From a virus: DNA of 64,000 bases. The notes under the pieces were generated by a model. That model was not told where the DNA came from. It worked only from the letters and a program-made list of their open reading frames with translations, and did no database searches. The position numbers were made by a program, and so were the translations under genes. How positions within the stretch are numbered: the first letter of the stretch is position 1; every line of letters starts with the position of its first letter. The stretch lies in the UHGV virus genome UHGV-0010228. One strand, written 5' to 3'. Below are positions 43,625 through 61,597 of this stretch, piece after piece.

Positions 43625-43641
43625 CAAAACATCACAGTAAA
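43625..43641 (+). promoter_or_regulatory. conserved fibre-gene upstream motif caaaacatcacagtaaa (candidate late promoter element)
   Basis: One of four copies of CAAAACAYC...ATAAA 18-47 nt upstream of large fibre gene starts. Confidence 0.5.
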
Positions 43642-43687
43642 CTTAATGCTTTCATTAATTATTTTTTTTTTGAAAGGAGATGACAGT

Positions 43688-46228
43688 ATGGCTTGGTATG
43701 AATATCGAGGAACTACTAATGACAAAGTAATCCCTATAAATACTACAGCAACTGCTGAAGATATAGCAACTGGTAAAACTGTATATAGTAATGGTGAAAA
43801 AATTGTTGGTAATATAGCATCGATAGGAATTAAAACATATTCCCCAGGAAAGGCAAATATTACTATACCTAAAAATTATTATTTATCCGGAAATCAGACT
43901 ATAAAAGGCGATTCAAATTTAATTGCAGCTAATATTATAAAGGGAAAATCAATATTTGGTGTAACTGGAACAACCAACGTTGTTAATTATAGAGCTGATA
44001 CAAAAAACTATACTAGTAGCAGTGAGAATTGTGGCGAAGTGTACAATGGTGTGACAATACCATATATAAATGATGCTATGTTGTTTGCGTATCCATCAGA
44101 AGCTCAAATTTCTAATAATCGATACTCATCTGGATCGAATCTATTTTTTAGTTCTCTTGGTGGTTATTTATGGTATACTATATCATGGTATTATAGATAT
44201 AACTCGGTTTATCAAAAAGCAAAATATTTACTATATGATCATACACTATCTACAGTAACTGCGATATATGGTAATCACTTAGTTAAATTTTTTCAATATC
44301 AATATTATATTAACAATGAATCATCTTATGAATGTATTTCAACATATGACTCGAATGTATCATTTAGTTCAAATTATATATCGATGATATTGAGTGCTGA
44401 TGATAAATATGTGTATATCAGCGATGTTGGAACGCCATCAACAACAACGGTATATATGGCTAATAATAATTCTGGTAGTAGTAAAAACATTACACTCACA
44501 AATAAAATTCCATATACATTATGTAGGCCATATTATGAAGAAGAAAAAAATCTATTATTTCATAAAAGGATTTATCTTACAGGAAGCGATTCTGCAAATG
44601 GTGTATATTATTCATATGATGGAAAAATATGGACTAAGACCAGTATATCATCAGGACAATTTAATATGTCTGCTAATGTTAAAAGTAGATTAGGATTTAT
44701 CTCCGTTGGTTCTACATTATACTATTCATATGACGGTATATCGTGGTCTCAATTTTCGAATACTGTTGCAATGGGCTCTTGTCAAAAATTTGTCAGTGGT
44801 ACAAATTCAGGACAAAGTATGAATGCTGCTATTGGAAGTGGTGGAAATGAAGGATTGTTATGTATCTCACCTTTTAGTGATCTTTCATATGGTGGAGAAA
44901 TTGACACTACAAACATAACAACGGGAAATTTTCATTATTTAGCGTCAAGTAGCGAATATATAATTGCAGCATCTGGTGATGATGGTACGCCTATATATTA
45001 TAGTTATAATGGATATTCATGGGCACAATATGGATCAATAACTTCTTCAGTAAAATGTTTAGAATATGCTAACGAAATATTTGTATTAGCTACTACCGAT
45101 GGTATGTATACAAGCAATAAACAGTGTAGTGGTTGGAAAAAAATATCTATCACTGATTCAACGATAGGATTTGATTTTGTTTTTTATGGAACTAATAAAG
45201 TTTGGGTCGGTGGATATAAAACATTAAATTATGTTTATTACTCAACCGATAATGGTACAACTTGGACTAAATCTGATGCAATATCCGGCAGTACAGGATT
45301 TAGTTCTGGATGTTACAATAGATTTACACAATTATATCTCATAGGTAGTTCGTCAGGAAATGGAATATATTATTCAAAAGATGGAATATCGTGGTATCCT
45401 AGTGAATTAACATCCCAAACTGTTAATAAATTTATGGTTACAAATACAAATGTTGTTGCATTGACAAATGCTGGGGTATATTATTCACATGATGGAGTTG
45501 TATGGAATATAACAAATCTTACAAATGCCATATATACAAAGATGAGTTACATTGACGTATTACAACGTCCAATAATCGATTATGATGTTCTATATGTTAG
45601 CACAGGAAGTTCAGATAATACTAATAATGGAGTATGCATGATCGCTGGTTATAATGGATATAATGGATCATCTTCCGGATCAATCATATGGTCAATAACT
45701 GAAAATTCATCAACATATGGAGCTATAATAGATATTATTACCGATATTGATAATCAATACATTTTTGGTCTATCTAAAAATGGATATCTGGTGGTTTATA
45801 ATATACGATCAAAGACATGTGTTGCTAAATTAGTCGATTCTGCTGGTGAAATGTGTAGAATTTCATATAACGCAGGAATAATAGCTGTTGGTTATATGTC
45901 TAATAATACAAATGTTATAATTAAGACTTTTATATTAAACTATGGAAATACAGATGGAATTAAAAATCTCATAATCAGGGACTTTACTTCAATCACAACA
46001 ACATCTTCAGCGTCAGATAATCCACCAAAAATCAAAGCACTTACAATTAATAATGAGGGGATAATTAAGTTTGGATTATCAAATGGGTATATATCAGCGA
46101 GTTATATATGTACAGGTGAATTATATGGCCAAAATATGTTAACATCTGAAGCTATCACAGGTTCACTTCCAGTGCTAAATGAAGTGGGGGATATTATAGG
46201 AACTAAATATTTTAAAACATTTTATTAA
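43688..46228 (+). CDS. receptor-binding protein, AWY-class N-domain + divergent BNR-like repeats
   Basis: GAAAGGAGATGA RBS before ATG 43688 (track ORF from 43646 is an upstream extension); N-terminus MAWYEY...NIIKGKSIFGVTGT; flanked by identical 53-bp terminator repeats. Confidence 0.7.
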   Translation: MAWYEYRGTTNDKVIPINTTATAEDIATGKTVYSNGEKIVGNIASIGIKTYSPGKANITIPKNYYLSGNQTIKGDSNLIAANIIKGKSIFGVTGTTNVVNYRADTKNYTSSSENCGEVYNGVTIPYINDAMLFAYPSEAQISNNRYSSGSNLFFSSLGGYLWYTISWYYRYNSVYQKAKYLLYDHTLSTVTAIYGNHLVKFFQYQYYINNESSYECISTYDSNVSFSSNYISMILSADDKYVYISDVGTPSTTTVYMANNNSGSSKNITLTNKIPYTLCRPYYEEEKNLLFHKRIYLTGSDSANGVYYSYDGKIWTKTSISSGQFNMSANVKSRLGFISVGSTLYYSYDGISWSQFSNTVAMGSCQKFVSGTNSGQSMNAAIGSGGNEGLLCISPFSDLSYGGEIDTTNITTGNFHYLASSSEYIIAASGDDGTPIYYSYNGYSWAQYGSITSSVKCLEYANEIFVLATTDGMYTSNKQCSGWKKISITDSTIGFDFVFYGTNKVWVGGYKTLNYVYYSTDNGTTWTKSDAISGSTGFSSGCYNRFTQLYLIGSSSGNGIYYSKDGISWYPSELTSQTVNKFMVTNTNVVALTNAGVYYSHDGVVWNITNLTNAIYTKMSYIDVLQRPIIDYDVLYVSTGSSDNTNNGVCMIAGYNGYNGSSSGSIIWSITENSSTYGAIIDIITDIDNQYIFGLSKNGYLVVYNIRSKTCVAKLVDSAGEMCRISYNAGIIAVGYMSNNTNVIIKTFILNYGNTDGIKNLIIRDFTSITTTSSASDNPPKIKALTINNEGIIKFGLSNGYISASYICTGELYGQNMLTSEAITGSLPVLNEVGDIIGTKYFKTFY

Positions 46229-46249
46229 TCTAGAAGTTAAATATCTATT

Positions 46250-46298
46250 AATTACGGTATATTCTATATATAGAATATACCGTAATTTCTTTTTTTTT
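46250..46298 (+). terminator. identical terminator copy 2
   Basis: Same 53-bp sequence as 43556-43609 (T-run one shorter). Confidence 0.8.
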
Positions 46299-46362
46299 AT
46301 TAGTATATTATTAAAGTGAATAAATACAATACATAGTATATAATATAAGGAGGAATATTACT

Positions 46363-46893: not shown

Positions 46894-46910
46894 ATATCGT
46901 AAAAAATATA

Positions 46911-46940
46911 AGTTAGGTTTTCCCTAACTTTATTTTTTAT
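46911..46940 (+). terminator. hairpin terminator after moron 46363-46893
   Basis: agttagg ttttc cctaact + ttattttttat. Confidence 0.6.
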
Positions 46941-46952
46941 ACTTATACCTGC

Positions 46953-46969
46953 CAAAACATCACAATAAA
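46953..46969 (+). promoter_or_regulatory. conserved fibre-gene upstream motif caaaacatcacaataaa
   Basis: 46 nt upstream of ATG 47015. Confidence 0.5.
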
Positions 46970-47014
46970 AATTAATAAAATAAATTATTTTTTGAAAGGA
47001 GTTGACTTAAATAT

Positions 47015-50000
47015 ATGCCATGGTTTCCTACATGTGGAGGCGTTGATACATCAGACGCAAATGTAACTCCAGAAGATGTATTAGAAGGAAAAATAGTATA
47101 TTCACATAATGGCCCAGTTGTGGGCACAATACCAAGTTTACCAGAAAAAACCTGGATTCCAGGACCTGAAGAACAGGTAATTCCGGGAGGACATTATATT
47201 GCAGGTACACAGACAATTAAAGGTGATCCTAACCTTTATCCAGAAAATATAGTTAAAGGTAAAACTATATTTGGTGTAGAAGGCACAGGTATACCTGTGG
47301 AATTTAACGATCCAACATTTATTGAAAAATTGTGCGTATCAGATTTTAAAGGTAAAGTTGATTTCTCTAAAGATTCCGAATATTTCTATACTTATGGTAC
47401 TTCAATTATTAATAAACATAATTCGACAACTGGAGAAGTTATATGGTCTCAATCAATATCTGATGATACTAAAAAAATATATTCAAATTTATATATAACA
47501 CCAGATGATCTTCTTATATATTATGGATCTAAAAATGGATATTTAAATTCAATAATAGCAGATTCAGGAATTTCTCATTTAAGTGTTAAGGTATTAGATA
47601 CAACAAAATCTGTTGAATATATAAAGGGTATTGAAAATTATAAAGGTTCAACATTCAGCTTATTATTATTTGTGCCAAATACAACAGTTATTGGAAGGGT
47701 AGATTTTATTGACACGTCTACTAATAATATAGAAACAATTACTATACCATCTAGTTATTCTATCGATGTCGATGATAAGGATATCTATTATTATTGCAAT
47801 TCTTCTTCTCCAAGAAAGATATGCAAGATATGTACAGATTCAGCGGATAATTATGAAATTGAAACTGGAACTATAAATAGTTATGGAATACAACCTGATG
47901 GAAAATATTTATACACAGTAGCTAAGGTTGATAATACTACTGATAAATTATCACAGTATAATGCAGAAACTGGTGCATTAGTACGTAGTGTGAACGTTGA
48001 TGTAAACACCCGTGATAACTGCTCATTACTTATTACGGATAGTTTATCGGAATATATATATCTTCAAAATACTAGAACTATATATAGATACTCAACTGAT
48101 TTGTTGTTAAATTATGCTAATAACCCATTTTTATTTACAGATGGTACAGTGTCCAGTGCTGTTGATAGTGCTAGTGTTGATAGTAATGGAGAATATGTAT
48201 ATGTATCATATTTAAGTGAAGATACCTCTGAGTTGTATAAATATAAGCAGGTATTTGGATCAATATACCCATTGGAAAATCCGGATCCTTATATCAATAT
48301 AGATAGAATTATTAAGAGAAAGAAAGATACTTATAAAACATATGAAACCCCAGTAGAAATCTGGGATGATGAATATGATTCAGAAATTGACTCTATTAGT
48401 TGTACTGATGATGGTCATTATGTATACATATGCACGCAGAATAATGGATTTATAAAAATGAATTCTGTAAATAAGAAAATTATATGGTCATATAATGATG
48501 GTATGTCAGGATATGTAGTTGTAGATCATAATGATAAGTATGTATATGTAGCAACGAATAGTGCATTAACTAAACTTGACGCATCAAATGGTAATGTTGT
48601 AATTTCATTATCAGATTATGCAAGATCTAGAACTGCTGCATATTCTATACAGAATATGACTATTACAGATGATAATGAATATTTAGTATATATTAATAAC
48701 AATAGTAGCTCTGCAAGTAGTAGTAAAATTGTTAAATTTAAAACTTCAGATATGAGTGTTAAATGGGAAAAGACACCTCATACTAATTACATTAACCAAT
48801 TAGATTTAGTAAGTAAAACTGGAGATATATATTTCAATAAATCTTCTCAGATACCTATTGAAACGGATTATATTCTTCCATTCACTGGTGGTGTAAATAA
48901 TGTAGTATATTTTAATAGTAAATATTTATTATTACCTAATAAAACTTTCATTACTAATAGTGAAACTAATACAACTGAGTTTACTTATTACTTAGGCGAT
49001 ACTCTTAATATAGCGTATATGGAAAAGCACACTATTAGTACTGATGGGATGAATACTAATTTTAGCGATTATACGATAACCAAAATAGTTGCATCTTCAT
49101 ATGTGTGTATTATATATGTAAAAGGCATTGACAATGCATCATTAACTGAAAGTGAAACTTCATTAAATAAATATTATTATACTTATGATGGCGTAAATTG
49201 GAGTGAGGGTTCATTTGGTTTATACTGCCCAACGTCAAATATTATTAATTGTAGTAATACATTTATATATTCGGCATCGGATAAGAGTACATATAATAAA
49301 TTATTCTCATCATATGATGGAATAAATTGGACTGAGAATACTAATTATACAGATACATATACTAATGGTACTGTATGGGGATTAGGATATGTCAATTCAA
49401 GATATTTATTAGTATCTAATATATTACAATATTCTACAGATTTTAAAACTTTTAGTACTGCAACTATTGCTAGTTTGCCTAGTGAAACTGCTGTTGGTGA
49501 GAATTTTGCTAATAAATATGGAGAAATTCACTGTGTTTATATATATAGCAGATATTATTTAGCTTGTGCTGATGGAATATATTATTCGTCTGATTTAAAT
49601 ACTTGGACAAAATGTACATTTACTTATCCGACTAGTGCGGATTTTCCTTCCGAATTATCTTACCCATTATTAATGACCAACTATAGTAATTATATATATA
49701 TTATAGAATCTGCTAGTGGTAATACAGCTGAAATATCGAATTATGTAAGATCAATTTATATTACTTCAACATCACAGACATCTTTCAATGTAACTAATAT
49801 TAAAGCTGCACCATTATTAAGTGAAACATCATCAACATCAACATTATTTGTAACTGGTGGATGTGTAAGTGATAATGCTATTGCCGGTCTTTATTATTCT
49901 ACAGATGGTAAAACATGGACTCAGTCTAATCTAACAACTGGACTTTTTAGCGATGTGTGTAATTTTGATATATGGGTAGCAGGTAGTAGTGATGATGGAC

Positions 50001-53000
50001 TTTATTATTCTATAGATGGTAAAACGTGGACTCAATCTAATATAACAACTGGTCATTTTAGTGCTGTATATAATACTACTGGCATATGGATAGCAGGTAG
50101 TAGTATTTTTGATAGTAAAGGTCTTTATTATTCTACAAATGGTAAAACATGGTTTCAATCTAATATAACAAGCGGAGGATTCTATACTATAAATTATGCT
50201 AATGATATATATCTAGCTTGTGGGGAAGGACTTTATTATTCTACAGACGGTAAAACATGGGAAAAGACTACTGTGAGTGGAGGATATCTGACTAGTGGGG
50301 GTTTTAGAAATGCATATTACGCTGATGCTATGTGGGTAGTGTGTAGTAATGATGACTATTGCTCTTATTATTCTAAAGATGGTAAAGCGTGGGCGCAATG
50401 TGAACCAGCTGTCGAAGAGGATGTATTTTGTAATATAGTATATTATTCTAATAAGAGTATATGGGTAGCTGGTAGTGAGCAAAGTAATGGATTGCAATAC
50501 TCTACAAATGGTATGTCGTGGACTCAGTCTAATATAAGCACTGGAATTATTAGAACGGTGTGTTATGGTAATAATATAGTTATAGCTGGTGGATATAACA
50601 CTGGTATATATTATTCTACAGATGGTAAAACGTGGACTCAATCTAATACAACCACTGGATCTTTTAATTTACTTTATTATTATGAGGATATATATATAGC
50701 TGTTAGTGGCAATAATAAAGGTCTTTATTATTCTACAGATGGTAAAACATGGACTCAATCTAATATAACTAGTGGAAGTTTTATGACTTCTATAGGTGAA
50801 TCATACCACCCAGTTACAACAAATAACAACAATAATTACATCTACTGTAATAGTAGATTAGCATCTTTCCCTGCGGTTACTGCTGATGATACTCATAGTA
50901 ATACTAAATATAGTATTGGATCATTAGAGAATTCTAAAATTCAACAATTAACTTATCAGGATACTAGAACTACTAATACAACATATTACGGATTATCTAC
51001 ATTTAATAATTCAACAGCAATATTATTAGGTCAATTCGAAGGGGCGAATCAAATTACTGATAATTATGCATATTCTACAGATAGTGGAGCAACATGGACT
51101 GGTGCGCATATGCCTAAAAAAGGCGAATGGATACATGTCGGAAAATTAATGAGTAAATATATTGCAGTATGTAATAGTAGTAATAATTTAGCAATATATG
51201 AATCGTCAGATGGGAAATCATGGTCACAGGGATCTATAACAAATTCCAATGGTAACGCATTAGCAAATAACATGATATCTATAAATAACGATGAAAATGA
51301 TGTTAAAATAAAAGTAATAACTAGTCCACTTATATCATCATTTGCAATAATCGTTTATACAACAATTGGCATAAATGTTGAAGGATATTATGTTTCATCT
51401 TCATTAAGCACTGGAAGTGCATTTAAAGTACAAAATTTCTCATCAAATATGACATCAACCCCATTATGTGCTATAAACGATACTTCACAAAAATGTATGT
51501 TTTTAGGTTGGAGTAATAATGGTAAATTTATGTACAGTGATGATATGCTATTATCACTCATGAATGGTGATTACTATACTGAAGTTACATCTTCAGAATC
51601 AATATCAAACTGGGATATGTATTCTGAAATAACAGGTGTAAAACTTTCAGATACTCAATATTTAGTATCGATGCAACCAACTTCATCATCAAGCTTAGTT
51701 AAAGTAGGATTGCTCGATACAAGTGCAAATACTTTAACATTTAGAGCGTCAACGTGGTATAATGGTAGATTTGTTGCTCCAGCAAATGGTAAGTTATATG
51801 CACTTAATACTTATAGTGTAAATGGAAATAGTGGTGGAGGTAAATTTACATCTATAACAAACTATGACACAACTAATACTGTAAAAGATGATGTTCTTCC
51901 GTCAGATCTATCATCATCTATAAGTAAAAATGATAAAACATATACTACATTATGCTCTTCAGGTACAAATCTTATTACAGTTATAAATGGTGAACCATAT
52001 GCATATTATACTAAGAACCCATTAGTAATTTCTGGTGGTGATGATAGATATATTAGAGCTATAGATTTCTTAACTGGAAATACAATATGGTCATTCTCAT
52101 TATCATATGCTGCAAATGGTATATATGTAAGTGATGATAAGAAGTTTGTATATGCTACAGTAAATGGCAATTCATCATCAGCTAATCTTTATAAATATAA
52201 TATTAATGCTACTAATTTATCTTCAATGAAGTATTCTACTAATTCATATTCTAGTGCAATATTCGGTAATGGAGATAAGATATTTACTGTTAAAAGTTCT
52301 AATGGTGGTATATTAGCCGCATATGATCCTGAATATCTTACAAATGATTATTCACTTACAGGTGCTAATGATACATCAACTGGACAGGAATATGGTAGAT
52401 GTTTAACTTATGATTCTGCTGGTGATTATATATATGCTGGTACTTATATGAATACTGGCAAAGGCCATTTACATAAATATAAATTAAAAGAAATTGAATA
52501 TGAAAAGATAGCAAGGGTATATAAGACTACTACAACAGGAGAAGATACTGAGGGAAAGGTATGGACTCAATCTAATATAAATAGTGGAGATTTTTATACA
52601 GTGTATTATGGTAATAGTATATGGGTAGCCGGCAGTATTAGCGGTAAAGGTCTTTATTATTCTACAAACGGTAAAGTATGGACTCAATCTAATATAACTA
52701 GTGGAGATTTTAGATCTGTATATAATGCTAATGGTATATGGGTAGCTGCTAGTGATAGTGATAATGGTCTATATTATTCTACAGATGGTAAAGTATGGAC
52801 TCAATCTAATATAAATAGTGGATATTTTTATACAGTGTATTATGATAATAGTATATGGGTAGCTTGTAGTGGTAAAGGTATATTTTATTCTACAGATGGT
52901 AAATCATGGACTCAATCTAATATAAATAGTGGAGATTTTTATACAGTGTATAATGCTAATGGTATATGGATAGCTGGTGGTATTGATACTGGTCTTTATT

Positions 53001-53476
53001 ATTCTACAAACGGTAAAGTATGGACTCAATCTAATATAACTAGTGGAGATTTTAGATCTGTATATAATGCTAATGGTATATGGGTAGCTGGTAGTGATAG
53101 TGATAATGGTCTATATTATTCTACAGATGGTAAAGTATGGACTCAATCTAATATAGATAATGGTAGTTTTAATACTGTATATTATGCTAATGATATATGG
53201 GTAGCTGGTAGTAGTGTTAATAAAGGTCTTTATTATTCTACAGATGGTAAATCGTGGACTCAATCTAATATAACTAGTGGAGATTTTAGATCTGTATATA
53301 ATGCTAATGGTATAATTATTGCTGGTAGTTATAGTAGTAATGGTATATTTTATTCTACAGATGGTAAATCATGGATTCAATCTAATATAAATAGTGGAGA
53401 TTTTTATACTGTATATAATGCTAATGGTATATGGGTAGCTGGTAGTATTGATACTGGTCTTTATTATTCAGAATAA
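47015..53476 (+). CDS. giant receptor-binding protein (2153 aa) with multiple BNR-like beta-propeller arrays
   Basis: GAAAGGAG RBS; N-terminal module shared with 43688 and 55467; two arrays of near-identical 114-bp repeats (49876-50790, 52556-53473). Confidence 0.75.
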   Translation: MPWFPTCGGVDTSDANVTPEDVLEGKIVYSHNGPVVGTIPSLPEKTWIPGPEEQVIPGGHYIAGTQTIKGDPNLYPENIVKGKTIFGVEGTGIPVEFNDPTFIEKLCVSDFKGKVDFSKDSEYFYTYGTSIINKHNSTTGEVIWSQSISDDTKKIYSNLYITPDDLLIYYGSKNGYLNSIIADSGISHLSVKVLDTTKSVEYIKGIENYKGSTFSLLLFVPNTTVIGRVDFIDTSTNNIETITIPSSYSIDVDDKDIYYYCNSSSPRKICKICTDSADNYEIETGTINSYGIQPDGKYLYTVAKVDNTTDKLSQYNAETGALVRSVNVDVNTRDNCSLLITDSLSEYIYLQNTRTIYRYSTDLLLNYANNPFLFTDGTVSSAVDSASVDSNGEYVYVSYLSEDTSELYKYKQVFGSIYPLENPDPYINIDRIIKRKKDTYKTYETPVEIWDDEYDSEIDSISCTDDGHYVYICTQNNGFIKMNSVNKKIIWSYNDGMSGYVVVDHNDKYVYVATNSALTKLDASNGNVVISLSDYARSRTAAYSIQNMTITDDNEYLVYINNNSSSASSSKIVKFKTSDMSVKWEKTPHTNYINQLDLVSKTGDIYFNKSSQIPIETDYILPFTGGVNNVVYFNSKYLLLPNKTFITNSETNTTEFTYYLGDTLNIAYMEKHTISTDGMNTNFSDYTITKIVASSYVCIIYVKGIDNASLTESETSLNKYYYTYDGVNWSEGSFGLYCPTSNIINCSNTFIYSASDKSTYNKLFSSYDGINWTENTNYTDTYTNGTVWGLGYVNSRYLLVSNILQYSTDFKTFSTATIASLPSETAVGENFANKYGEIHCVYIYSRYYLACADGIYYSSDLNTWTKCTFTYPTSADFPSELSYPLLMTNYSNYIYIIESASGNTAEISNYVRSIYITSTSQTSFNVTNIKAAPLLSETSSTSTLFVTGGCVSDNAIAGLYYSTDGKTWTQSNLTTGLFSDVCNFDIWVAGSSDDGLYYSIDGKTWTQSNITTGHFSAVYNTTGIWIAGSSIFDSKGLYYSTNGKTWFQSNITSGGFYTINYANDIYLACGEGLYYSTDGKTWEKTTVSGGYLTSGGFRNAYYADAMWVVCSNDDYCSYYSKDGKAWAQCEPAVEEDVFCNIVYYSNKSIWVAGSEQSNGLQYSTNGMSWTQSNISTGIIRTVCYGNNIVIAGGYNTGIYYSTDGKTWTQSNTTTGSFNLLYYYEDIYIAVSGNNKGLYYSTDGKTWTQSNITSGSFMTSIGESYHPVTTNNNNNYIYCNSRLASFPAVTADDTHSNTKYSIGSLENSKIQQLTYQDTRTTNTTYYGLSTFNNSTAILLGQFEGANQITDNYAYSTDSGATWTGAHMPKKGEWIHVGKLMSKYIAVCNSSNNLAIYESSDGKSWSQGSITNSNGNALANNMISINNDENDVKIKVITSPLISSFAIIVYTTIGINVEGYYVSSSLSTGSAFKVQNFSSNMTSTPLCAINDTSQKCMFLGWSNNGKFMYSDDMLLSLMNGDYYTEVTSSESISNWDMYSEITGVKLSDTQYLVSMQPTSSSSLVKVGLLDTSANTLTFRASTWYNGRFVAPANGKLYALNTYSVNGNSGGGKFTSITNYDTTNTVKDDVLPSDLSSSISKNDKTYTTLCSSGTNLITVINGEPYAYYTKNPLVISGGDDRYIRAIDFLTGNTIWSFSLSYAANGIYVSDDKKFVYATVNGNSSSANLYKYNINATNLSSMKYSTNSYSSAIFGNGDKIFTVKSSNGGILAAYDPEYLTNDYSLTGANDTSTGQEYGRCLTYDSAGDYIYAGTYMNTGKGHLHKYKLKEIEYEKIARVYKTTTTGEDTEGKVWTQSNINSGDFYTVYYGNSIWVAGSISGKGLYYSTNGKVWTQSNITSGDFRSVYNANGIWVAASDSDNGLYYSTDGKVWTQSNINSGYFYTVYYDNSIWVACSGKGIFYSTDGKSWTQSNINSGDFYTVYNANGIWIAGGIDTGLYYSTNGKVWTQSNITSGDFRSVYNANGIWVAGSDSDNGLYYSTDGKVWTQSNIDNGSFNTVYYANDIWVAGSSVNKGLYYSTDGKSWTQSNITSGDFRSVYNANGIIIAGSYSSNGIFYSTDGKSWIQSNINSGDFYTVYNANGIWVAGSIDTGLYYSE
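49876..50790 (+). repeat. tandem BNR-like repeat array 1 in giant fibre gene
   Basis: Recurring ggtctttattattctacagatggtaaaacatggactcaatctaatataac units. Confidence 0.8.
52556..53473 (+). repeat. tandem BNR-like repeat array 2 in giant fibre gene (eight 114-bp units)
   Basis: Near-identical units e.g. 52677-52790 vs 53022-53136. Confidence 0.8.
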
Positions 53477-53633
53477 TTTTATTTTTTAAATCTAAAAATT
53501 TATATTTAATATTAACACTTAATTCACACAAAAGAAGAGTTAAAAATATTAATATTTAATGATATTAATATTTTTCTATTAATAAATTTTGTGTTAATTG
53601 AGTAAATTCAATTAATAATTCAAATTTGTAATT

Positions 53634-53692: not shown

Positions 53693-53730
53693 ATCATCTA
53701 TATCTCTCTTCATTCTCTATATATTTTTTT

Positions 53731-54162: not shown

Positions 54163-55173
54163 TTAATTTGGCGATACTATTAATTTAGATATAATTGCGC
54201 TTATTCTGGTATAATGAGATGATAAATATTTAGTTTTTTTGAGAATGAGTTCATGTATATTAGTTCCTGTACGGCCGTCACCTATGCGTTGTCGTGCAAT
54301 ACGTAATCCGTTGTCATTTTTCATATTAAATTCGTAATTTCCATGATGAGTTTTTAACTCATTCAGTCTGTTATTGATAAAATTTAAGATAATACCGGCG
54401 CTCTTGTTTAATTTCGATACTTTATTTAAAAGTGTAATATAATGTTTTTCAACACTAGGTATCTTACTCGTTAATAGATTAGATCCTTTATTCGCTATAC
54501 TATTTTCCAATTTTGTTAATTGAGAATCAATCTCATCATTAGAATAACGACGGCTATTATCCTCATAATATTCTAAGCGATCTTCTGCCTTATCATCTGA
54601 TATTATTTTTGTTCCTCGTTTAGCTTCGAGAATTATTATATTTAACGCTTCGTTATATCTATTAGCTTCCACATCTATATAATCTGCTATTCTTACCAAG
54701 AATCTCAAATCAATTTCTAAGTCTTTTTTCAATTGATTACCTTTTAATTTAGGGCTTTTATATCTACTAGTCTTTTCAGGCTCTGGTAAACTTTTAACTA
54801 TTGGCTTATCTTCTTCTTTACCATCACTTTTTAATCTTCTTCTAGTTATATTCTTACCTCTACCTTTAGCAAATTTATTAGATGTAGAAGTAGATAAATT
54901 ATCTTCATCATTTTCTTCTGGATATGGTTCTTCTTCATCTTCTTCTTCTATTGATTTATTTCCTCTATTTTTAATAAAGTTTTTAACAGATTCCCACGCT
55001 TTCTTTATCTTTTTACCTAATTCTCCTAATTTATTCGTTATAGTTTCCCATATTTTCTTTAACCATCCCCATATAGTACTACCTACATTTTTTACTTTAT
55101 CTATAATACCTTCATATGCATAATCATTATCTATTATATTATATGATTCTAATGTATTATATAAATCAAACAT
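54163..55173 (-). CDS. Lys/Glu-rich protein, paralogue B' (336 aa)
   Basis: RBS and first 36 codons identical to 38379 gene in inverted orientation. Confidence 0.65.
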   Translation of the reverse strand: MFDLYNTLESYNIIDNDYAYEGIIDKVKNVGSTIWGWLKKIWETITNKLGELGKKIKKAWESVKNFIKNRGNKSIEEEDEEEPYPEENDEDNLSTSTSNKFAKGRGKNITRRRLKSDGKEEDKPIVKSLPEPEKTSRYKSPKLKGNQLKKDLEIDLRFLVRIADYIDVEANRYNEALNIIILEAKRGTKIISDDKAEDRLEYYEDNSRRYSNDEIDSQLTKLENSIANKGSNLLTSKIPSVEKHYITLLNKVSKLNKSAGIILNFINNRLNELKTHHGNYEFNMKNDNGLRIARQRIGDGRTGTNIHELILKKTKYLSSHYTRISAIISKLIVSPN

Positions 55174-55254
55174 TATAATACCTCCTTATATTATATAATA
55201 TTAATATAATGTATAACAAAAAAAAAACAAATGAATGACTAATAATAGTCATTC
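55062..55254. repeat. inverted repeat IR-B right copy
   Basis: See 38297-38490. Confidence 0.85.
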
Positions 55255-55272
55255 TCTATTCTCTATTATAAC

Positions 55273-55326
55273 CTATAAATTAATATAATTATTCTATACT
55301 ATAGATATTATTATATTAATTTATAG
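55273..55326. repeat. truncated P element (left arm deleted)
   Basis: ctataaattaatata + attattctatactatagatattattatattaatttatag; followed by gtaaataagagagaaagtaataga. Confidence 0.75.
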
Positions 55327-55410
55327 GTAAATAAGAGAGAAAGTAATAGATAGAGTAATGATAGATAGAGTATACATCGTCTTAGATGTATACTCATATA
55401 TTATTCGCCT

Positions 55411-55427
55411 CAAAACACCATGATAAA
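55411..55427 (+). promoter_or_regulatory. conserved fibre-gene upstream motif caaaacaccatgataaa
   Basis: 40 nt upstream of TTG 55467. Confidence 0.45.
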
Positions 55428-55466
55428 TTTTATATAAACCATAAATCCCTGAAAGGAGTGATTATA

Positions 55467-58400
55467 TTGGCATGGTATACAGCAGTTAATGCACATGATA
55501 CATCAGATGCTACTGCATCTGATAATGATATTAGAAAAGGTAAAACTGCATATGTTAATAATAAATTAGTTACTGGTACAATGCCAGAAAAAGCTGCTGC
55601 TACATATACACCATCAACGAAAGATCAAACTATAACTAGTGGAGTATATTTAGCCGGAGATCAGACTATAAAAGGAGATTCTAATCTCATATCTGATAAT
55701 ATAGTTAGAAAAAAATCAATATTTGGAGTTGAAGGAAATCAAATTCCTATAGAATTTAATGATCAAGTAAAGATGCTGAGTGGGATTACTCACGAAACTA
55801 TAACCTATGATAATGAAAAAATATTAACATCTTTTAATAAAAATACCAATGCCGCTGTAATAATGAGCGCAATTAGATTAAATGATGAAAATTATAATGT
55901 AACGAAAGTTTATTCATATAAGATATTATTTACATATTTGTCATTAGATACATATGATGTAGTATCATCATCAACATTCATTATTTGTAGATCTAAAATT
56001 GATGGTTATGCTGATAGTGATACTGATGAAATAATACAATCTAGAAATAACTTTACTACTACAAATTTCTTTCCTGTAACTGAAAGACCAATGATAACTA
56101 GTATTTCATTAGAAAATGATGGAATAGTACTTGTATCTATGAGAGGAATCAGTTCATACATTGGATCTGGTGCTAATTTTCAAAATATAGCAAAAATCGA
56201 TCTGAAAAACGGAAAATTGATATCAACAATGTCAATTCTTGATGATTATGTAAATCATATATCAAATGCAGTTAATTGTGTGAAAATGATTGATGATAAT
56301 ATTTATATAGATGGTCCTGCAACACAGCCGGGATTAAATTATATAACAGTTGATGGTGCATATTCAATATCGCCATACTCATCGGCAATTAATGGATATA
56401 TATTATATGAATATCATAATGATATAAGCACTGAACCTATACAATATTATGTTGTAACCGAACAATATAATTCATCGTTAGGTATATATGAACCAAAACT
56501 ATCTGAGAAAAAACAGATCCCAGCATATGGTTGGTGTATGGATAGATACTCTAGAATTATGCTTACTGATTATCATAATGCTAATGTCTGGGACTATATA
56601 TGTTATTTTAACGGATATTACTATATAATATTTGGTTTGGCATATGATGATCATTTATTAAGAACTACAGATTTTTCTAATTTTGATTATATTAGCTTTA
56701 CTGATGATTTTAAAATTTCATTTTACAGTAATCGAACTGCCATGGTATCTGCTCTTATTTCAGATACAGTAAATAATAAATTATTATTTTTATGCACTGA
56801 CGATCATCGTTTTGCTATATATGATGGTACTACTAATAAAACATCATATTTAGCCTTACCATATGATAACTATAATACAGGATATAATGGATTTACAACA
56901 CTTAGAAGTGCGGCATTTGACTATAATAAAACCTTCGTATTTCATTTTGGACAAAATAGTGCAAATTCAAAAGATTATCCAGATCCAACGAATAACTATA
57001 TTTTCGTGACAACAAATTATGGATCGTCATACACAGTTATTGACATTAAAGATATCTTTTCAGAAGCTATACAAAATCAGCTAAGCGGTTATTCGATTAA
57101 TTATGGCATTGGTCTTGGATATATAAATGAAGCTTTTTATATATTTTCAACAGCTAGAAATTCTAATTCATCGAGTTATAATAGCTATGTTATAATATCT
57201 AAATCTATTGATGGACTTAATTGGGAAACACCTACATTAGTATATAATAGCGACACATATTATACAACACATTCAAAAAAAAGTATTGCCGGTGATAGTA
57301 ATAATACTATAGTAATCATAACCACATCAGAACGAAATAATGATGATAGTACAAGAGTAGGATATATATATTCAAGGGATAATGGGGTATCATGGTCATC
57401 AATAAATACATTAAGATCTTCTTTTACTGCGAATGGTACTATCGCAACCTCAATTGCATATGGTAATGGAAAATTTATTGTTACAATTAGCTGTTCTGAT
57501 GATGATTATGTTAGAATATACTATAGTACAAATGGGTCGTCGTGGTCAAGCACATCTTTATCAATCAATAGTGATAAAGAGTGTTGTTATAGAGTTTCGT
57601 ATTGTAATGATCGCTTTATAATGATGCCATCATGGGGCTATAGATTTTTTTATAGCACAGATGGTATATCTTGGACATCATCTGCTGCGCTATATAATAG
57701 AGGATCATGCAAAATAACTATAAAACCATATATGCTGACTGATTCTAGATACTCATTGTATTTTAACAATTCTTCATATTCTTCACAATATCTTGAAAAG
57801 ATATTATACATTGTACCGGACTATTGTTCGAGTCTTGGTTGGAGCAGTTATGGTATAAATAAAACGATAGGAACTCTTGATGGCTCATCGTGGTATTTGT
57901 ATAAACGTAATGATTCTTTTTCTATTTCAGCTCCTGATTGGTTATCTGATACTTACTATCCTAATAAAAGTTACGAATGTGATGATGAGAAATCCTTTAC
58001 AAATAATATTTATATTGGCATGAGTTATGGTACAGACCCAACCTCATCAATATATGGAAAGTACCCATTTTACACAACTAATGGGCGACAGATATATGCA
58101 TGGACAGCAATGATTTCTGTGCTTGCTCAGCTTAAATCAATTACTACCAATATGGTTGATTATTTTTGTGTATTCTATAGCACATATTATAATAAATATT
58201 TAATTATACTTACTATATATGATAAACCGAATTCAAAACGTGTTACGTATATGTACTATACCACATCTATCGGAACTGCAACTGTAAATAGTTACAATTT
58301 TGATTCTGCCGATTTTCACGACAATTTTGTTTCTGCTATAGATATGTCCACTCTTAGTATGTATGAAGAATTAGATATTGGGAAAATTGTCTTTTATAGT

Positions 58401-59738
58401 AAAACTGGGCTCGCAATTTTTAAATTTAATGCCAATGGAACAGCTATTGATAGTGTATCAATCACAAAATTATCTTTTACTGATAATACTATATATAAAT
58501 ACAACAATAAATATTATACATATATTTCATCAAATGATAATATTAAAATTTATGAATCGTCAAATCTTTCAGATTGGACAACAAAGACTATTTCAGAATG
58601 TAATATTTTTAAAATAATAAATCAAGGGGTTGCCTCTTCCAATATTGGAAAGAGTGCTGAAAATTATAGTTATATGACTCTTGGCAACATTCGCTTATCA
58701 TTAGGGCTTATTCCATTTAGTGATAAGGGTTATGGTGGCGATGAAATTAACAGTAGTTATAGCAAATCGATATCGTCTCCTGGCATATATTTATATGACA
58801 GTAGTTCTAATATGGAATATTTAATGTGTATAGATGCTAATTTAATACGAATAGTTCGATCTCAAAAAATGAATAATATTGGTGGTGCGCTAGCATCTAA
58901 TAATTTAGTGCTGTTACATAGTCAAAAAAATAGTAAAAAGGTGCTATACTATATTCATCCAAAGTCTAAATCGGGGTATCGAACTTCATTATATAAACTA
59001 AATGATGATAGTGATTCATACACAATCATCGACGATTCCCCAAACGATTATATTGATGGCGATGTTATTGATATATTACAAATATCTGAAACTAGATATA
59101 TTACAGTAAATAAGCGCAGATTATTATCTACAGCTTTAGGTGTAGAATATGCCAGACCTATGGAATATCTTATTAATTATTATACTATAAATGAGGGTAA
59201 GGCAGATACAAAACAAAATACTATCGCTATATCTGTAAATCCTACTAATTATACATTTACATATTTACATAGTATATATTCTAATTCATATATATATACA
59301 ACATTCTTAAGAAGTGATAATAGGATGATACGATATACTCAAACAAATGATATTGAATCATCATTGACCGATATACCAGTATCATCTATATCAGGCGTTT
59401 CAACATTCGGTGGAGCACTTGTTACTTCGGATTATATATATATAATACGCACAAATAATATTTTACAAAAGCTATATCGAGGAACCACGTCAATTGGATC
59501 ATCAATATGGAAATTTACAATTCCACAGACAAATACTAATGAATCATTTATTAAAATTGATATAGATTCTAGGGGAAATATATGGTGTATTTCACAATAT
59601 AGAACTGTAATATTAGTAGAGTCAGTAGGCTCTGCATATCTCAAATCTAATAAAACTAATGATCCTGCATATATTGCAATAAATAACAGGTCTGAAGAAT
59701 ATAATGATCTATATGATGTTTTTTATATATATGATTAA
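55467..59738 (+). CDS. large receptor-binding protein (about 1424 aa), AWY-class N-domain, divergent Asp-box-like repeats
   Basis: Probable TTG start 55467 (GAAAGGAGTG 9 nt upstream) giving MAWYTAV aligned to MAWYEY of 43688; track ORF begins further upstream. Confidence 0.6.
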   Translation: MAWYTAVNAHDTSDATASDNDIRKGKTAYVNNKLVTGTMPEKAAATYTPSTKDQTITSGVYLAGDQTIKGDSNLISDNIVRKKSIFGVEGNQIPIEFNDQVKMLSGITHETITYDNEKILTSFNKNTNAAVIMSAIRLNDENYNVTKVYSYKILFTYLSLDTYDVVSSSTFIICRSKIDGYADSDTDEIIQSRNNFTTTNFFPVTERPMITSISLENDGIVLVSMRGISSYIGSGANFQNIAKIDLKNGKLISTMSILDDYVNHISNAVNCVKMIDDNIYIDGPATQPGLNYITVDGAYSISPYSSAINGYILYEYHNDISTEPIQYYVVTEQYNSSLGIYEPKLSEKKQIPAYGWCMDRYSRIMLTDYHNANVWDYICYFNGYYYIIFGLAYDDHLLRTTDFSNFDYISFTDDFKISFYSNRTAMVSALISDTVNNKLLFLCTDDHRFAIYDGTTNKTSYLALPYDNYNTGYNGFTTLRSAAFDYNKTFVFHFGQNSANSKDYPDPTNNYIFVTTNYGSSYTVIDIKDIFSEAIQNQLSGYSINYGIGLGYINEAFYIFSTARNSNSSSYNSYVIISKSIDGLNWETPTLVYNSDTYYTTHSKKSIAGDSNNTIVIITTSERNNDDSTRVGYIYSRDNGVSWSSINTLRSSFTANGTIATSIAYGNGKFIVTISCSDDDYVRIYYSTNGSSWSSTSLSINSDKECCYRVSYCNDRFIMMPSWGYRFFYSTDGISWTSSAALYNRGSCKITIKPYMLTDSRYSLYFNNSSYSSQYLEKILYIVPDYCSSLGWSSYGINKTIGTLDGSSWYLYKRNDSFSISAPDWLSDTYYPNKSYECDDEKSFTNNIYIGMSYGTDPTSSIYGKYPFYTTNGRQIYAWTAMISVLAQLKSITTNMVDYFCVFYSTYYNKYLIILTIYDKPNSKRVTYMYYTTSIGTATVNSYNFDSADFHDNFVSAIDMSTLSMYEELDIGKIVFYSKTGLAIFKFNANGTAIDSVSITKLSFTDNTIYKYNNKYYTYISSNDNIKIYESSNLSDWTTKTISECNIFKIINQGVASSNIGKSAENYSYMTLGNIRLSLGLIPFSDKGYGGDEINSSYSKSISSPGIYLYDSSSNMEYLMCIDANLIRIVRSQKMNNIGGALASNNLVLLHSQKNSKKVLYYIHPKSKSGYRTSLYKLNDDSDSYTIIDDSPNDYIDGDVIDILQISETRYITVNKRRLLSTALGVEYARPMEYLINYYTINEGKADTKQNTIAISVNPTNYTFTYLHSIYSNSYIYTTFLRSDNRMIRYTQTNDIESSLTDIPVSSISGVSTFGGALVTSDYIYIIRTNNILQKLYRGTTSIGSSIWKFTIPQTNTNESFIKIDIDSRGNIWCISQYRTVILVESVGSAYLKSNKTNDPAYIAINNRSEEYNDLYDVFYIYD

Positions 59739-59822
59739 ATATATTATATGCAATAAACTTATATATAAAAATGATATTTCAAATCTCAAAAAATGTAAAT
59801 TATTAATGGAGGTATTATTATA

Positions 59823-60179: not shown

Positions 60180-60195
60180 AGGAGGAAATCTTAAT

Positions 60196-60309
60196 ATGGC
60201 AAAGTATCTTGCAATGAGAATCAAGGCTGGAAAGCTTGATAAGGATGAAGTATATGCTAGATATCCTAAGTATAAGGGTGCAATCGAAGCTATACTCGCC
60301 GAAGAGTAA
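60196..60309 (+). CDS. XkdX-like small protein (38 aa), tentative
   Basis: AAAGGAGGAAA RBS before internal ATG of track ORF 60109-60309; MAKYLAMRIKAGKLDKDEVYARYPKYKGAIEAILAEE; bidirectional hairpin follows. Confidence 0.45.
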   Translation: MAKYLAMRIKAGKLDKDEVYARYPKYKGAIEAILAEE

Positions 60310-60356
60310 AAAAAAAAGAAAACGAGAGGTAAGCATTGCTTACCTCTCTTATATTT
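60310..60356. terminator. bidirectional terminator between XkdX-like gene and DHH gene
   Basis: A10 run, gagaggtaagc att gcttacctctc, then ttatatttg. Confidence 0.7.
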
Positions 60357-60357
60357 G

Positions 60358-61485
60358 CTACTCTGTAGCTGCTAACTCCAGAGCTTTTGTAATGGTTGTA
60401 TCAACCATTATCTGTCTAAGCTCTGGAGTTATACCCGCTCCAGCGGCCTTCTTGTGGCCACCTCCGAGCGGGTTGAATGCCTTAGCTATTATGCTAAGGT
60501 CGATATCGTCTCTCTCAGTCCTGAGACTGATGGCGTTGTCGCCAATAATTGCGACAAAATCCAGCTCAGGATAAATTGCCATGAGCTCATGCCCCACATC
60601 GTTCATGAGCTTTTCCGCGAACACTGCGCGGAACTTGTACTCGTGGCCATTAATAGTCGCACTACGTTCGAAGCTCTTCTCGAGCTTCTTTTCAACGTAG
60701 TCAGCGTCCTGTTTAAGAACATTGATTACGAGTGATTTATAAATTCCATCGTGAATATTGTTGAGACCATATATTATTAAATCATTCATACTTCTTGGTG
60801 GTTTATTGATCTCATATGTTGCATATATGAGATCAATAAAGTTTCTACCGACATCACCACCCAAATGATACACCGTATTTAGCAATTGGGCCGAGTGATA
60901 AATTTTTGAATTTAGCCCTAATCCAGCAAACGAAATATTGTTTACGGGATCTTTTTTGAATTCATATGTATCATACATACGAATCATTTCGGAAACTAAG
61001 TCTCCGATTTCAAAGAAGATGTCGATATTCTCAATATCAACATATCGTAAAACCCCCCATACCAGGCTTGTAGCGCATATCGGCTCACCTTCGTATGATG
61101 AGAGGATGCAACTGTTTTCCTCCCACCACATATTGTCCCAGTCTACCTGGGTCTGGTGGTGATCTATCCAGATCACCTTATCCAGATGACCTGAGTTACT
61201 CAGGAGATCATATGCCTCCTGAGTCAAATTTAGATCTGTTACTACTAACAGATCTAAATCTGCGCTCTCAAATAATTCGAGAGCTTTTTCAAGGCTCTCG
61301 ATTAATGGCTTGCCTGGGTTTGATCTATCCCAGGTATGAGTTTTTTCCATGAAAGCCTGTTTAAACAGGCTTTCGCACCCATATCCGTCAAGATCTGTAT
61401 GCGAAATAGTATGGATTCTTTCTGGTGGATTCTCCACCATTTCAATAAGCTTTGACGAATATATATTCATTTCTCTGTAATCCAT
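60358..61485 (-). CDS. DHH/DHHA1 family phosphoesterase (NrnA-like nanoRNase / pAp or cyclic-dinucleotide phosphodiesterase)
   Basis: ISHTDLDGYGC (motif I), LLVVTDLN, VIWIDHHQT (DHH), C-terminal FNPLGGGHKKAAGAGI (DHHA1 GGGH); AAGGAGG RBS; GC ~45-50%. Confidence 0.75.
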   Translation of the reverse strand: MDYREMNIYSSKLIEMVENPPERIHTISHTDLDGYGCESLFKQAFMEKTHTWDRSNPGKPLIESLEKALELFESADLDLLVVTDLNLTQEAYDLLSNSGHLDKVIWIDHHQTQVDWDNMWWEENSCILSSYEGEPICATSLVWGVLRYVDIENIDIFFEIGDLVSEMIRMYDTYEFKKDPVNNISFAGLGLNSKIYHSAQLLNTVYHLGGDVGRNFIDLIYATYEINKPPRSMNDLIIYGLNNIHDGIYKSLVINVLKQDADYVEKKLEKSFERSATINGHEYKFRAVFAEKLMNDVGHELMAIYPELDFVAIIGDNAISLRTERDDIDLSIIAKAFNPLGGGHKKAAGAGITPELRQIMVDTTITKALELAATE

Positions 61486-61580
61486 AGTTTTATCCTCCTT
61501 ATAATAACTATGTAGCTTTAACTTTTCAATATAATAATATATTTATTAAAAAAAAACAAATTTCGGTATATTATCCACCC

Positions 61581-61597
61581 CAAAACACGATAATAAA
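61581..61597 (+). promoter_or_regulatory. conserved fibre-gene upstream motif caaaacacgataataaa
   Basis: 18 nt upstream of ATG 61615. Confidence 0.45.

Follow-up and report, generated by a model that had tools for sequence, protein, structure and literature searches.

Four copies of a 17-base motif, lying just ahead of four large fibre genes, are very likely, by analogy with phages of the AR9/PBS1 group, late promoters for a non-virion RNA polymerase of the AR9/PBS1 type, a multisubunit enzyme encoded by the phage. The motifs were studied in a stretch of 64,000 nucleotides of the virus genome UHGV-0010228 (the window), together with additional sequence from the same phage reaching ~17 kb beyond it (L024 and L001, the latter being another assembly). 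Exact matches to CAAAACAYNNNNRTAAA in the window number four, at 43625, 46953, 55411 and 61581 and on the + strand only, against a chance expectation of 0.01, so that the copies reported in the original prediction are real; none of 100 dinucleotide-preserving shuffles reached four. The motif can be dissected into C-AA-[AACA]-N6-[TA]-AA, which all four sites fit:

43625-43641, + strand: putative extended late promoter 1, CAAAACATCACAGTAAA, AACA core at 43628-43631; predicted transcription start at A 43639, leader of 49 nt to the ATG at 43688
46953-46969, + strand: putative extended late promoter 2, CAAAACATCACAATAAA; predicted transcription start at A 46967, leader of 48 nt to the ATG at 47015
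55411-55427, + strand: putative extended late promoter 3, CAAAACACCATGATAAA, identical in L001; predicted transcription start at A 55425, leader of 42 nt to the TTG at 55467
61581-61597, + strand: putative extended late promoter 4, CAAAACACGATAATAAA, identical in L001; predicted transcription start at A 61595, leader of 20 nt to the ATG at 61615

When the four upstream regions are aligned, the main blocks of identity are the motif and the ribosome-binding site, the remainder being scattered single invariant columns. A Shine-Dalgarno sequence (GAAAGGAG or GGAGGTG) 7-9 nt ahead of each start bears out the four start codons as originally called, and the distance from motif to start, given as 18-47 nt, was confirmed as 47, 46, 40 and 18 nt for sites 1-4. 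The further claim that the motif occurs nowhere else in the window holds for the 17-mer, which a motif scan of the kind first proposed placed only at the four sites in the window and the ~17 kb of L024 and L001, but not for its AACA-N6-TAA core, which lies upstream of six more genes. Moreover, the 8-mer CAAAACAY is confined to the four sites on both strands of ~81 kb of phage sequence. Matches to CAAAACAYNNNNRTAAA with up to two mismatches number 20 versus 17.5 expected, and because this is no excess, the 17-mer has no degenerate copies.

The genes that follow the four motifs are these:

43688-46228, + strand: putative fibre or receptor-binding protein of 846 aa, with an N-terminal ~95 aa as in the 47015 and 55467 proteins
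47015-53476, + strand: putative fibre protein of 2153 aa with a beta-propeller-like match (PQQ_2)
55467-59738, + strand: putative fibre protein of 1423 aa, matching BNR_2 below threshold (25.1 bits versus a curated cut-off of 31.4)
61615-64000, + strand: large repeat protein, continuing past the window end (964 aa in L001)

Three of the four proteins share an N-terminus (MAWY, MPWF or LAWY), and their genes are paralogous, with 67-78% nucleotide identity in the 5' coding parts (repeats D8 and D9); the N-terminus of the protein from 61615 is unrelated to the other three. The 2153-aa protein carries many YYSTDGKxWTQSNI repeats of ~38 aa each. In L001 the 61615 gene is followed by an 82-aa and then a 2167-aa gene, with short gaps of 27 and 20 nt, and the three genes probably share one transcription unit. 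Predicted terminators lie 16-28 nt upstream of three of the four motifs:

43560-43597, + strand: intrinsic terminator hairpin with T-run, ending 28 nt before promoter 1
46910-46930, + strand: terminator-like hairpin with T-run, ending 23 nt before promoter 2
55368-55395, + strand: terminator-like hairpin, ending 16 nt before promoter 3

A near-identical copy of the first terminator lies at 46250-46287, downstream of the first fibre gene (direct repeat D12). The fibre region as a whole is rich in repeats, duplicated terminators and long inverted repeats.

The phage, so far met only in metagenomes, is a human-gut jumbo phage related to the AR9/PBS1 group, and contigs of the same phage span up to 223-235 kb. 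The terminase finds its best tblastn matches in vB_BpuM-BpSp, Goe21 and Staphylococcus jumbo phages, then in Fusobacterium phages and AR9/PBS1 (26-35% identity), and the sheath in phiR1-37, AR9 and PBS1. Terminase, sheath, tube, capsid and protease are closest to, and syntenic with, the AR9/PBS1 group, and the gene order protease (- strand), capsid, terminase, sheath, tube and large virion protein is that of AR9 at 88-107 kb.

In AR9, the late promoter of the non-virion RNA polymerase is AACA-(6N)-TA/G, with its last base as the start; 94 late start sites have been mapped, and mutating positions -11 to -8 abolishes in vitro transcription (PMC5312081, PMC5449584). The footprint of the AR9 polymerase extends from -20 to +20. 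In the present phage, AACA-N6-TA is found at the four fibre sites, at six further sites in the window and at two in L024. This match to the AR9 consensus supports well the original claim of a phage late promoter and narrows its type, whereas the activator-binding element offered alongside is disfavoured, as the motif would span roughly -14 to +3 relative to the predicted start, within the polymerase footprint, and has no dyad or repeat structure. By analogy, the beta-N subunit and a sigma-like specificity subunit, gp226 in the case of AR9, would jointly read the template strand, recognizing the bases opposite AACA at -11 to -8 (3'-TTGT-5', or UUGU if the DNA contains uracil), and transcription would start six bases and a T after AACA, at the A of TA. 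With a terminator before three of the four promoters and a strong ribosome-binding site after all four, every large fibre gene or fibre operon would be a separate late transcription unit. We infer the presence of the polymerase and specificity-subunit genes in this genome, the start sites and the late timing.

Beyond the four large fibre genes, the core lies ahead of six more genes in the window:

8701-8713, + strand: putative generic late promoter, AACAGCTATGTAA, before virion-protein gene 8727, the counterpart of AR9 g125
9486-9498, + strand: putative generic late promoter before tail-sheath gene 9549, the counterpart of AR9 g126
12419-12431, + strand: putative generic late promoter before gene 12449 for an 804-aa virion protein, the counterpart of AR9 g128
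21843-21855, + strand: putative generic late promoter before gene 21881, the counterpart of AR9 g251
23762-23774, + strand: putative generic late promoter before gene 23838
39273-39285, + strand: putative generic late promoter before gene 39340 (341 aa, tail-fibre PHROG)

The same core stands ahead of the capsid and protease genes in L024, just outside the window. For AACANNNNNNTAA, the window holds 12 copies versus 25.7 expected, and 10 of these 12 AACA-N6-TAA copies lie 15-65 nt ahead of + strand start codons. Sense matches to AACA-N6-T[AG] in the 3271 nt of upstream zones number 10, versus 1.9 +/- 1.3 in dinucleotide shuffles, a count reached by none of 2000 shuffles. Furthermore, the noncoding count peaks at the 6-nt spacing (11 at N6 versus 2-8 at N2-N11). 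Inside genes the motif is depleted at other spacings too, because AACA/TGTT is itself depleted, and this adds little. Specificity for receptor-binding genes, as first proposed, is therefore mostly wrong for a motif whose core precedes the sheath gene, a small fibre gene and four further virion-block genes; it survives only for the CAA that occupies -14 to -12 and the Y found at -7, while the rest, including the TAAA part, is general to the late promoters of this phage. The fibre-like genes 34426, 36256 and 26327 (the last inside an operon) lack the motif.

Late starts with the motif have been mapped in AR9 for g114 (protease), g117 (capsid), g125, g126 (sheath), g128 and g251 (AR9 Table S3), and six of the eight comparable counterparts of AR9 late genes carry it here: the L024 protease and capsid genes, 8727, 9549, 12449 and 21881, with leaders of 15-52 nt. 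The other two, though their AR9 counterparts have late promoters, are the terminase gene, with no AACA motif upstream, and the baseplate-wedge gene, with no perfect motif and only a one-mismatch variant (CACA). The late promoters here resemble those of AR9/PBS1 in the invariant AACA, the 6-nt spacer and the T-A at the start, in leader length, short in both (15-65 nt in this phage and, in AR9, mostly 17-65 nt), in standing ahead of structural genes, six of them orthologous, and in their partner, the early-promoter core ATATATTAT-N6-G. They differ in that A occupies +2 in 12 of 12 sites of this phage versus 37% in AR9, that the spacers may be G/C-rich, and that the AR9 consensus has nothing corresponding to the CAA at -14 to -12 of four promoters; the proteins are only 23-38% identical to those of AR9.

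The early core itself occurs nine times in the window versus 2.5 expected, and five of the nine matches are intergenic and properly oriented toward non-structural genes or gene clusters:

366-381, - strand: candidate early-promoter core
7595-7610, + strand: candidate early-promoter core, part of an exact 20-nt match at 7591-7610 to the full AR9 early consensus AAATATATATTAT-N6-G (consensus from PMC5312081), 44 nt before gene 7654
21166-21181, - strand: candidate early-promoter core
21783-21798, - strand: candidate early-promoter core
61527-61542, - strand: candidate AR9-type early-promoter core, ATATATTATTATATTG, predicted to drive the divergent DHH-phosphoesterase gene 60358-61485, in the same intergenic region as late promoter 4

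This core is conserved in distant AR9-group phages, and the late motif was not recoverable de novo in the same study (bioRxiv 10.1101/2020.12.14.422802). Here the late motif is conspicuous for two reasons: the window covers a block of structural genes, and this phage has an added TAA at the start.

Could another machinery read these sites? It is extremely improbable that they are promoters for a host holoenzyme with sigma-A, an alternative sigma or a T4-like late sigma reading an ATAAA-type -10. ATAAA and GATAAAT do loosely resemble a -10 box and the T4 late element TATAAATA, but no -35 partner lies 16-18 nt away, TATAAATA is absent from all four sites, which read CAGTAAAC, CAATAAAA, TGATAAAT and TAATAAAA, and an invariant AACA 6 nt ahead of TA is foreign to sigma-70 and T4 late promoters. 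Moreover, the phage is AR9-like rather than T4-like, and AR9-group phages transcribe independently of host polymerase (PMC7598289). Sigma-70-like sites show no enrichment (146 found versus 149.8 expected), and none of the best 60 of the 146 on the + strand falls at the four motif places. T4 late promoters, with TATAAATA at -10 and read with gp55/gp33 and the sliding clamp, resemble the present ones in that one short A/T-rich element precedes late structural genes, with a superficial ATAAA likeness; here conservation lies in AACA, upstream of an A-rich start, and the phage is unrelated to T4-like phages. With the late promoters of phiKZ, read by its non-virion RNA polymerase, the present ones would share a phage multisubunit polymerase with a gp68/gp226-type subunit, and they do share a very short start-proximal consensus with no -35 element. 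However, their consensus is TATG, with G as the start, which none of the four predicted starts shows, the phiKZ enzyme reads thymine-containing double-stranded DNA, and the present phage is closer to AR9 by sheath and terminase. Among candidates screened, a sigma-70-type promoter was rejected because no -35/-10 pair among the best 60 of 146 coincides with any of the four sites, and a T4-type late promoter for want of TATAAATA near -10. That the motif acts instead in RNA, as a 5'-leader structure, a processing site or a translational operator for the fibre mRNAs, would fit its place just ahead of the ribosome-binding site in all four genes, yet it hardly deserves credence: there is no Rfam match, the predicted leaders show no folding advantage over shuffled sequences (z -0.6 to +2.4), and the motif lies anywhere from about 5 to 33 nt ahead of the ribosome-binding site. 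Because three of the four sites directly follow a terminator, the motif itself must provide a transcription start rather than come after one.

With the motif taken as an AR9-type late promoter, there remains the CAA at -14 to -12, present in four of four fibre promoters versus none of the eight other late promoters of the phage. Most simply, it reflects either shared ancestry of promoter cassettes or a local variant of strength or timing. Inheritance without selection, with promoters deriving from one or two cassettes copied or recombined along with fibre modules and only the AACA-N6-TAA core selected, is a real if tentative possibility. Three of the four genes are paralogous, the sites form two look-alike pairs (sites 1 and 2 share CAAAACATCACA[GA]TAAA; sites 3 and 4 share TATATTAT-N6-CAAAACAC, with 11 of 16 bases identical upstream), and cassette exchange is plausible in so repeat-rich a region. 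However, the leaders between motif and ribosome-binding site have diverged past alignment while 11 of 11 fixed motif positions are identical in the four copies, more conservation than ~70% neutral identity would leave, and the 5' end of the fourth gene is not paralogous. Since the N-terminus encoded there is unrelated, simple gene duplication fails to explain the fourth motif copy, a point in favour of a distinct promoter subclass, in which the extension would be functional and, in line with the original prediction, class-specific: CAA (with Y at -7) would be recognized by an extra phage factor or an alternative specificity subunit, so that large fibre genes have a timing or expression level of their own, e.g. 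'very late', on a retained AR9-type core. The contrast in CAA, the restriction of CAAAACAY to these sites in ~81 kb and the position of the extension inside the AR9 enzyme footprint agree with such a subclass, which nevertheless seems unlikely: the fibre class was defined via the motif, making the contrast post hoc, the fibre-like genes 39340, 34426, 36256 and 26327 (operon-internal) lack the extension, and the window yielded no candidate for such a factor. Of the 94 AR9 late promoters, 3 contain CAAAACA, unlinked to gene class, and AR9 promoters with AA at -13/-12 are not stronger, their start-site signal being unchanged.

Polymerase subunits and a gp226 homologue were not found in the window or the ~17 kb of flanks. 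The gp226 family has 682 representatives in metagenomes, none placed on contigs of this phage; the placeable human-gut homologues lie on contigs of 23% or 49% GC, which for that reason are different phages, and one sits on a 3.3-kb fragment of matching GC (0.32) without a tie to this genome. On a gut jumbo contig of 49% GC with a gp226 homologue, AACA-N6-TR stands ahead of five genes. Uracil at template-strand positions -11/-10 is a strict requirement of the AR9 enzyme. As the present phage assembles readily from ordinary metagenome libraries, unlike reports for dU phages, its mechanism may depart from that of AR9 in the uracil requirement; dU-metabolism genes were absent from the window and flanks. 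In most gut-metagenome homologues, not tied to this phage, V206, the thymine-excluding valine of AR9 gp226, is replaced. A joint reading, in which a gp226 variant without the uracil-selecting valine would recognize the template strand of thymine DNA in AR9 style, and a second late-promoter tier (CAAAACAY...TAAA) would time or boost the giant receptor-binding proteins apart from other virion genes, is distinctly improbable.

At the level of sequence, the putative late promoters described here add to a known promoter type, whose core is already familiar from AR9. That core is not specific to fibre genes, and just three bases of the motif, CAA, are special to them.

An exact search of the 64-kb window recovered four copies of CAAAACAYNNNNRTAAA, at 43625, 46953, 55411 and 61581 (sites 1-4), all on the plus strand and each ahead of a large fibre gene (43688, 47015, 55467 and 61615, named by start coordinate). 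Dinucleotide-preserving shuffles expect 0.01, which bears out the four-copy motif of the original prediction. The 8-mer CAAAACAY is restricted to these sites on both strands of the window, and when up to two mismatches to CAAAACAYNNNNRTAAA are allowed the count in the window is not above expectation. The gene starts had also been placed correctly: a strong Shine-Dalgarno sequence stands before every one, and an N-terminus is common to three of the four proteins. When the four upstream regions are aligned, the motif, in the register C-AA-[AACA]-N6-[TA]-AA, and the ribosome-binding site form the main blocks of identity, other invariant columns being single and scattered. Intrinsic-terminator-like hairpins, enriched in the region (24 against 4.7 expected), lie upstream of sites 1, 2 and 3 at gaps of 28, 23 and 16 nt. 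Copies of one such hairpin (43553-43616 and 46243-46306; 94% identity over 64 nt) stand on both flanks of gene 43688, which thus forms a terminator-promoter-gene-terminator cassette.

PHROG scans of the window found a tube protein, baseplate parts, ‘virion structural proteins’ and the following:

3486-5807: large terminase
9549-11414: tail sheath

No phage record matches the window at the nucleotide level, and in IMG/VR neither the terminase nor a gp226-like query protein has a close relative (gp226 is the specificity subunit of the non-virion RNA polymerase of the Bacillus jumbo phage AR9). By protein, the closest annotated relatives of the terminase are the Bacillus phages vB_BpuM-BpSp and Goe21 and Staphylococcus jumbo phages, followed by Fusobacterium phages and AR9/PBS1 (26-35% identity), and those of the sheath are Yersinia phiR1-37, AR9 and PBS1. 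When two 50-kb segments of AR9 were searched by local tblastn, nine proteins of the phage matched AR9 genes, in the AR9 order: protease, capsid, terminase, g125-like, sheath, tube, g128-like, baseplate wedge and g251-like. The first two of these are encoded immediately upstream of the window, in a locus from another assembly of the same phage (L024). Look-ups of identical proteins put the phage on contigs of 223,545 and 235,396 bp from human-gut metagenomes, Hadza samples included. Judged by these protein relatives, the gene order and the contigs, the phage is an uncultivated jumbo relative of the AR9 group, whose members carry two multisubunit RNA polymerases and of which AR9, PBS1, S6 and phiR1-37 have uracil DNA (PMC7598289). 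As a separate observation, two other assemblies (L014 and L018) encode a 514-aa polyphosphate-kinase-like protein (PP_kinase_C, PLDc_2) where the window has a 538-aa ORF (18268-19884, minus strand).

In AR9, differential RNA sequencing and primer extension defined the late promoter as AACA-(6N)-TA/G, the final base being the transcription start, at 94 of 118 late starts (PMC5312081). The purified non-virion polymerase, in which gp226 reads the template strand and whose footprint spans about -20 to +20, loses all in vitro transcription when any base from -11 to -8 is changed (PMC5449584, PMC9209446). Read in this way, sites 1-4 have predicted starts at 43639, 46967, 55425 and 61595 and leaders of 49, 48, 42 and 20 nt, inside the mapped AR9 range. 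Across the 3271 nt of noncoding sequence up to 120 nt upstream of genes, AACA-N6-T[AG] occurs ten times on the sense strand against 1.9 +/- 1.3 expected, a count reached in 0 of 2000 shuffles of these zones. The noncoding excess is peculiar to the N6 spacing (11 matches, against 2-8 at spacings of 2-11 nt). All 12 candidate late sites of the phage have A at +2, and the sharpened pattern AACANNNNNNTAA has 12 copies in the window, fewer than the 25.7 expected, ten of which lie 15-65 nt ahead of starts 8727, 9549 (sheath), 12449, 21881, 23838, 39340, 43688, 47015, 55467 and 61615. The core stands twice more in L024, ahead of the protease and capsid genes. Moreover, six core-bearing genes match AR9 g114, g117, g125, g126, g128 and g251, all of which have mapped late starts and the same motif; a perfect core copy is absent before the counterparts of the AR9 terminase and baseplate-wedge genes. 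The core is thus in general use by the phage and not confined to fibre genes, and the four motifs are probably late promoters of the AR9 non-virion-polymerase type, a narrower reading of the late promoter originally proposed, which the upstream enrichment of core and spacing and the motif shared with AR9 counterparts support.

Other promoter classes fit poorly. Sigma-70-like promoters are not enriched in the region and sites 1-4 coincide with none of the 60 best-scoring listed, while neither the T4 late element TATAAATA nor the phiKZ TATG fits the four sites. The activator-binding element suggested as an alternative is unlikely, since the motif spans -14 to +3 and lacks symmetry; an Rfam search matched no family and the leaders are unstructured on folding. 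Inside genes the motif falls short of expectation (46 seen against 71 expected from synonymous-codon shuffles), which might be taken for selection against stray promoters; we give this no weight because other spacings show it likewise, AACA/TGTT itself being rare. In the coding regions of the window, AACA occurs 304 times against 340 +/- 13 and TGTT 248 times against 291 +/- 10.5 in such shuffles, under-represented at all TA spacings; this scarcity could be promoter-core avoidance or mere codon-pair bias.

Of the specificity for receptor-binding genes originally claimed, only a three- to four-base extension remains, the core and TAAA being general features of the phage’s late promoters. C-14, A-13, A-12 and a pyrimidine at -7 are the sole distinction of sites 1-4, present in four of four against none of the eight other sites, a contrast drawn post hoc. 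Fibre-like genes without the extension include 39340 (plain core), 34426 and 36256 (no core) and 26327 (within an operon). In AR9, by comparison, CAAAACA occurs in three of 94 late promoters, unconnected to gene class, and AA at -13/-12 is not tied to higher start-site signal in the phage’s own data (p = 0.77). A plausible explanation is inheritance through shared descent of promoter cassettes, given that the sites form two look-alike pairs (1 with 2, and 3 with 4, the latter sharing TATATTAT-N6 upstream) and that three of the four fibre genes are 5'-paralogues. Counting against pure descent, the leaders have wholly diverged, yet every fixed motif position is unchanged across the four sites, and the extension may alternatively mark a functional promoter subclass. 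Among loci sharing the fibre N-terminal domain, five of 54 upstream regions carry the core, but this set (80 metagenome loci of 27-61% GC, with the domain mostly inside operons or larger proteins) spans such mixed phages that it is uninformative on conservation of the extended motif in relatives and does not count against it.

The early class of AR9 promoters is also recognizable. Its core and start base, ATATATTAT-N6-G, occur nine times in the window against 2.5 expected, and five of these are intergenic and aimed at small or non-structural genes:

366-381, minus strand: intergenic ATATATTAT-N6-G
7591-7610, plus strand: exact match to the full 20-nt AR9 consensus AAATATATATTAT-N6-G
21166-21181, minus strand: intergenic ATATATTAT-N6-G
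21783-21798, minus strand: intergenic ATATATTAT-N6-G
61527-61542, minus strand: core for a DHH-phosphoesterase gene, divergent from fibre promoter 4

The direction of these intergenic cores suggests that early genes are interspersed within the structural block. The same early core has been reported in jumbo phages of Staphylococcus, from which a de novo search did not recover the late motif. The early-promoter core also appears as (A)TATATTAT at 55396-55410 and 61567-61580, ending 6 nt ahead of the C of CAAAACA at fibre promoters 3 and 4, so that an early-type start there would be C and not the usual G; these copies may be degenerate early promoters or chance. A near-identical block (TACATTATATTAATATTATATAATATAAGGAGG; at 38339-38378, plus strand, 55174-55213, minus strand, and L024 2450-2510, minus strand) lies upstream of three genes, two of which encode the N-terminus MFDLYNTLESYN... 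and none of which has the AACA motif; it is possibly a third promoter type.

The fibre region is rich in repeats. An inverted repeat of 260 nt (34258-34517 / 38027-38286; 98% complementary) encloses a convergent pair of paralogous fibre-like genes whose upstream regions and N-termini are identical, and another of 226 nt (38320-38545 / 55007-55232; 90%) encloses 16.5 kb with two large fibre genes. A public assembly of the phage (L001) ends about 375 nt past its copy of gene 55467, roughly at the second inverted repeat, and inversion or recombination of fibre modules is possible. An AT-rich near-perfect palindrome of about 107 nt, present in two copies (34278-34384 and 38160-38266) with half of it repeated close to fibre promoter 3 (55283-55328), could be a recombination site or bidirectional terminator. 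Furthermore, dozens of ~111-117-nt repeats, common to at least five tail genes, encode G-L-Y-Y-S-T-D-G-K-x-W-T-Q-S-N-I (BNR / beta-propeller-like), and their copy number in gene 61615 is unequal between the window and L001:

41400-42400: ~111-117-nt repeats
49850-50800: ~111-117-nt repeats
52430-53540: ~111-117-nt repeats
62700-64000: ~111-117-nt repeats
33400-33900 and 44590-44650: further copies

Neither polymerase subunits nor a gp226-like subunit lie within the window or ~17 kb of its flanks, and no transcription factor or polymerase subunit was recognized when every sizeable window protein was scanned against PHROG and Pfam. Homology searches from AR9 gp226 and two distant hits, with a profile search, yielded a family of 682 metagenome representatives at 50% identity, far beyond the twelve from GenBank in the alignment of the 2022 structure paper. 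The placeable homologues belong to phages other than this one, on contigs of 264 kb with 23% GC and on one of 238 kb with 49% GC, and another, on a 3.3-kb fragment of 32% GC, is not assignable to a phage. AACA-N6-TR lies ahead of five genes on a gut jumbo contig (49% GC) with a gp226 homologue. V206, reported as invariant in the gp226 of phages with uracil-containing DNA and behind the rejection of thymine by AR9 gp226, gives way to S, T, P or I in most gut homologues of our alignment; combined with how easily standard libraries yield assemblies of the phage, this is compatible with the lineage reading thymine DNA.

The predicted promoters described here would be a further instance of the already known AR9 type, whose late rule has been experimentally mapped in one phage only. 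A review of these polymerases held that sequence analysis cannot predict the late promoters of the group (PMC7598289), and MEME did not recover those of Staphylococcus phage MarsHill (bioRxiv 10.1101/2020.12.14.422802). Reading them offers a practical means to map transcription units and early and late gene classes in uncultivated jumbo phages, useful for annotation, and defines four terminator-promoter-fibre cassettes (with terminator-like hairpins at sites 1-3) that are open to tests of separate receptor-binding protein control. Both the late rule and a matching early core are legible in the bare sequence of this gut phage, although its proteins share only ~25-35% identity with those of AR9, which suggests conservation of the two-polymerase programme of transcription and of its promoter code across the whole lineage.
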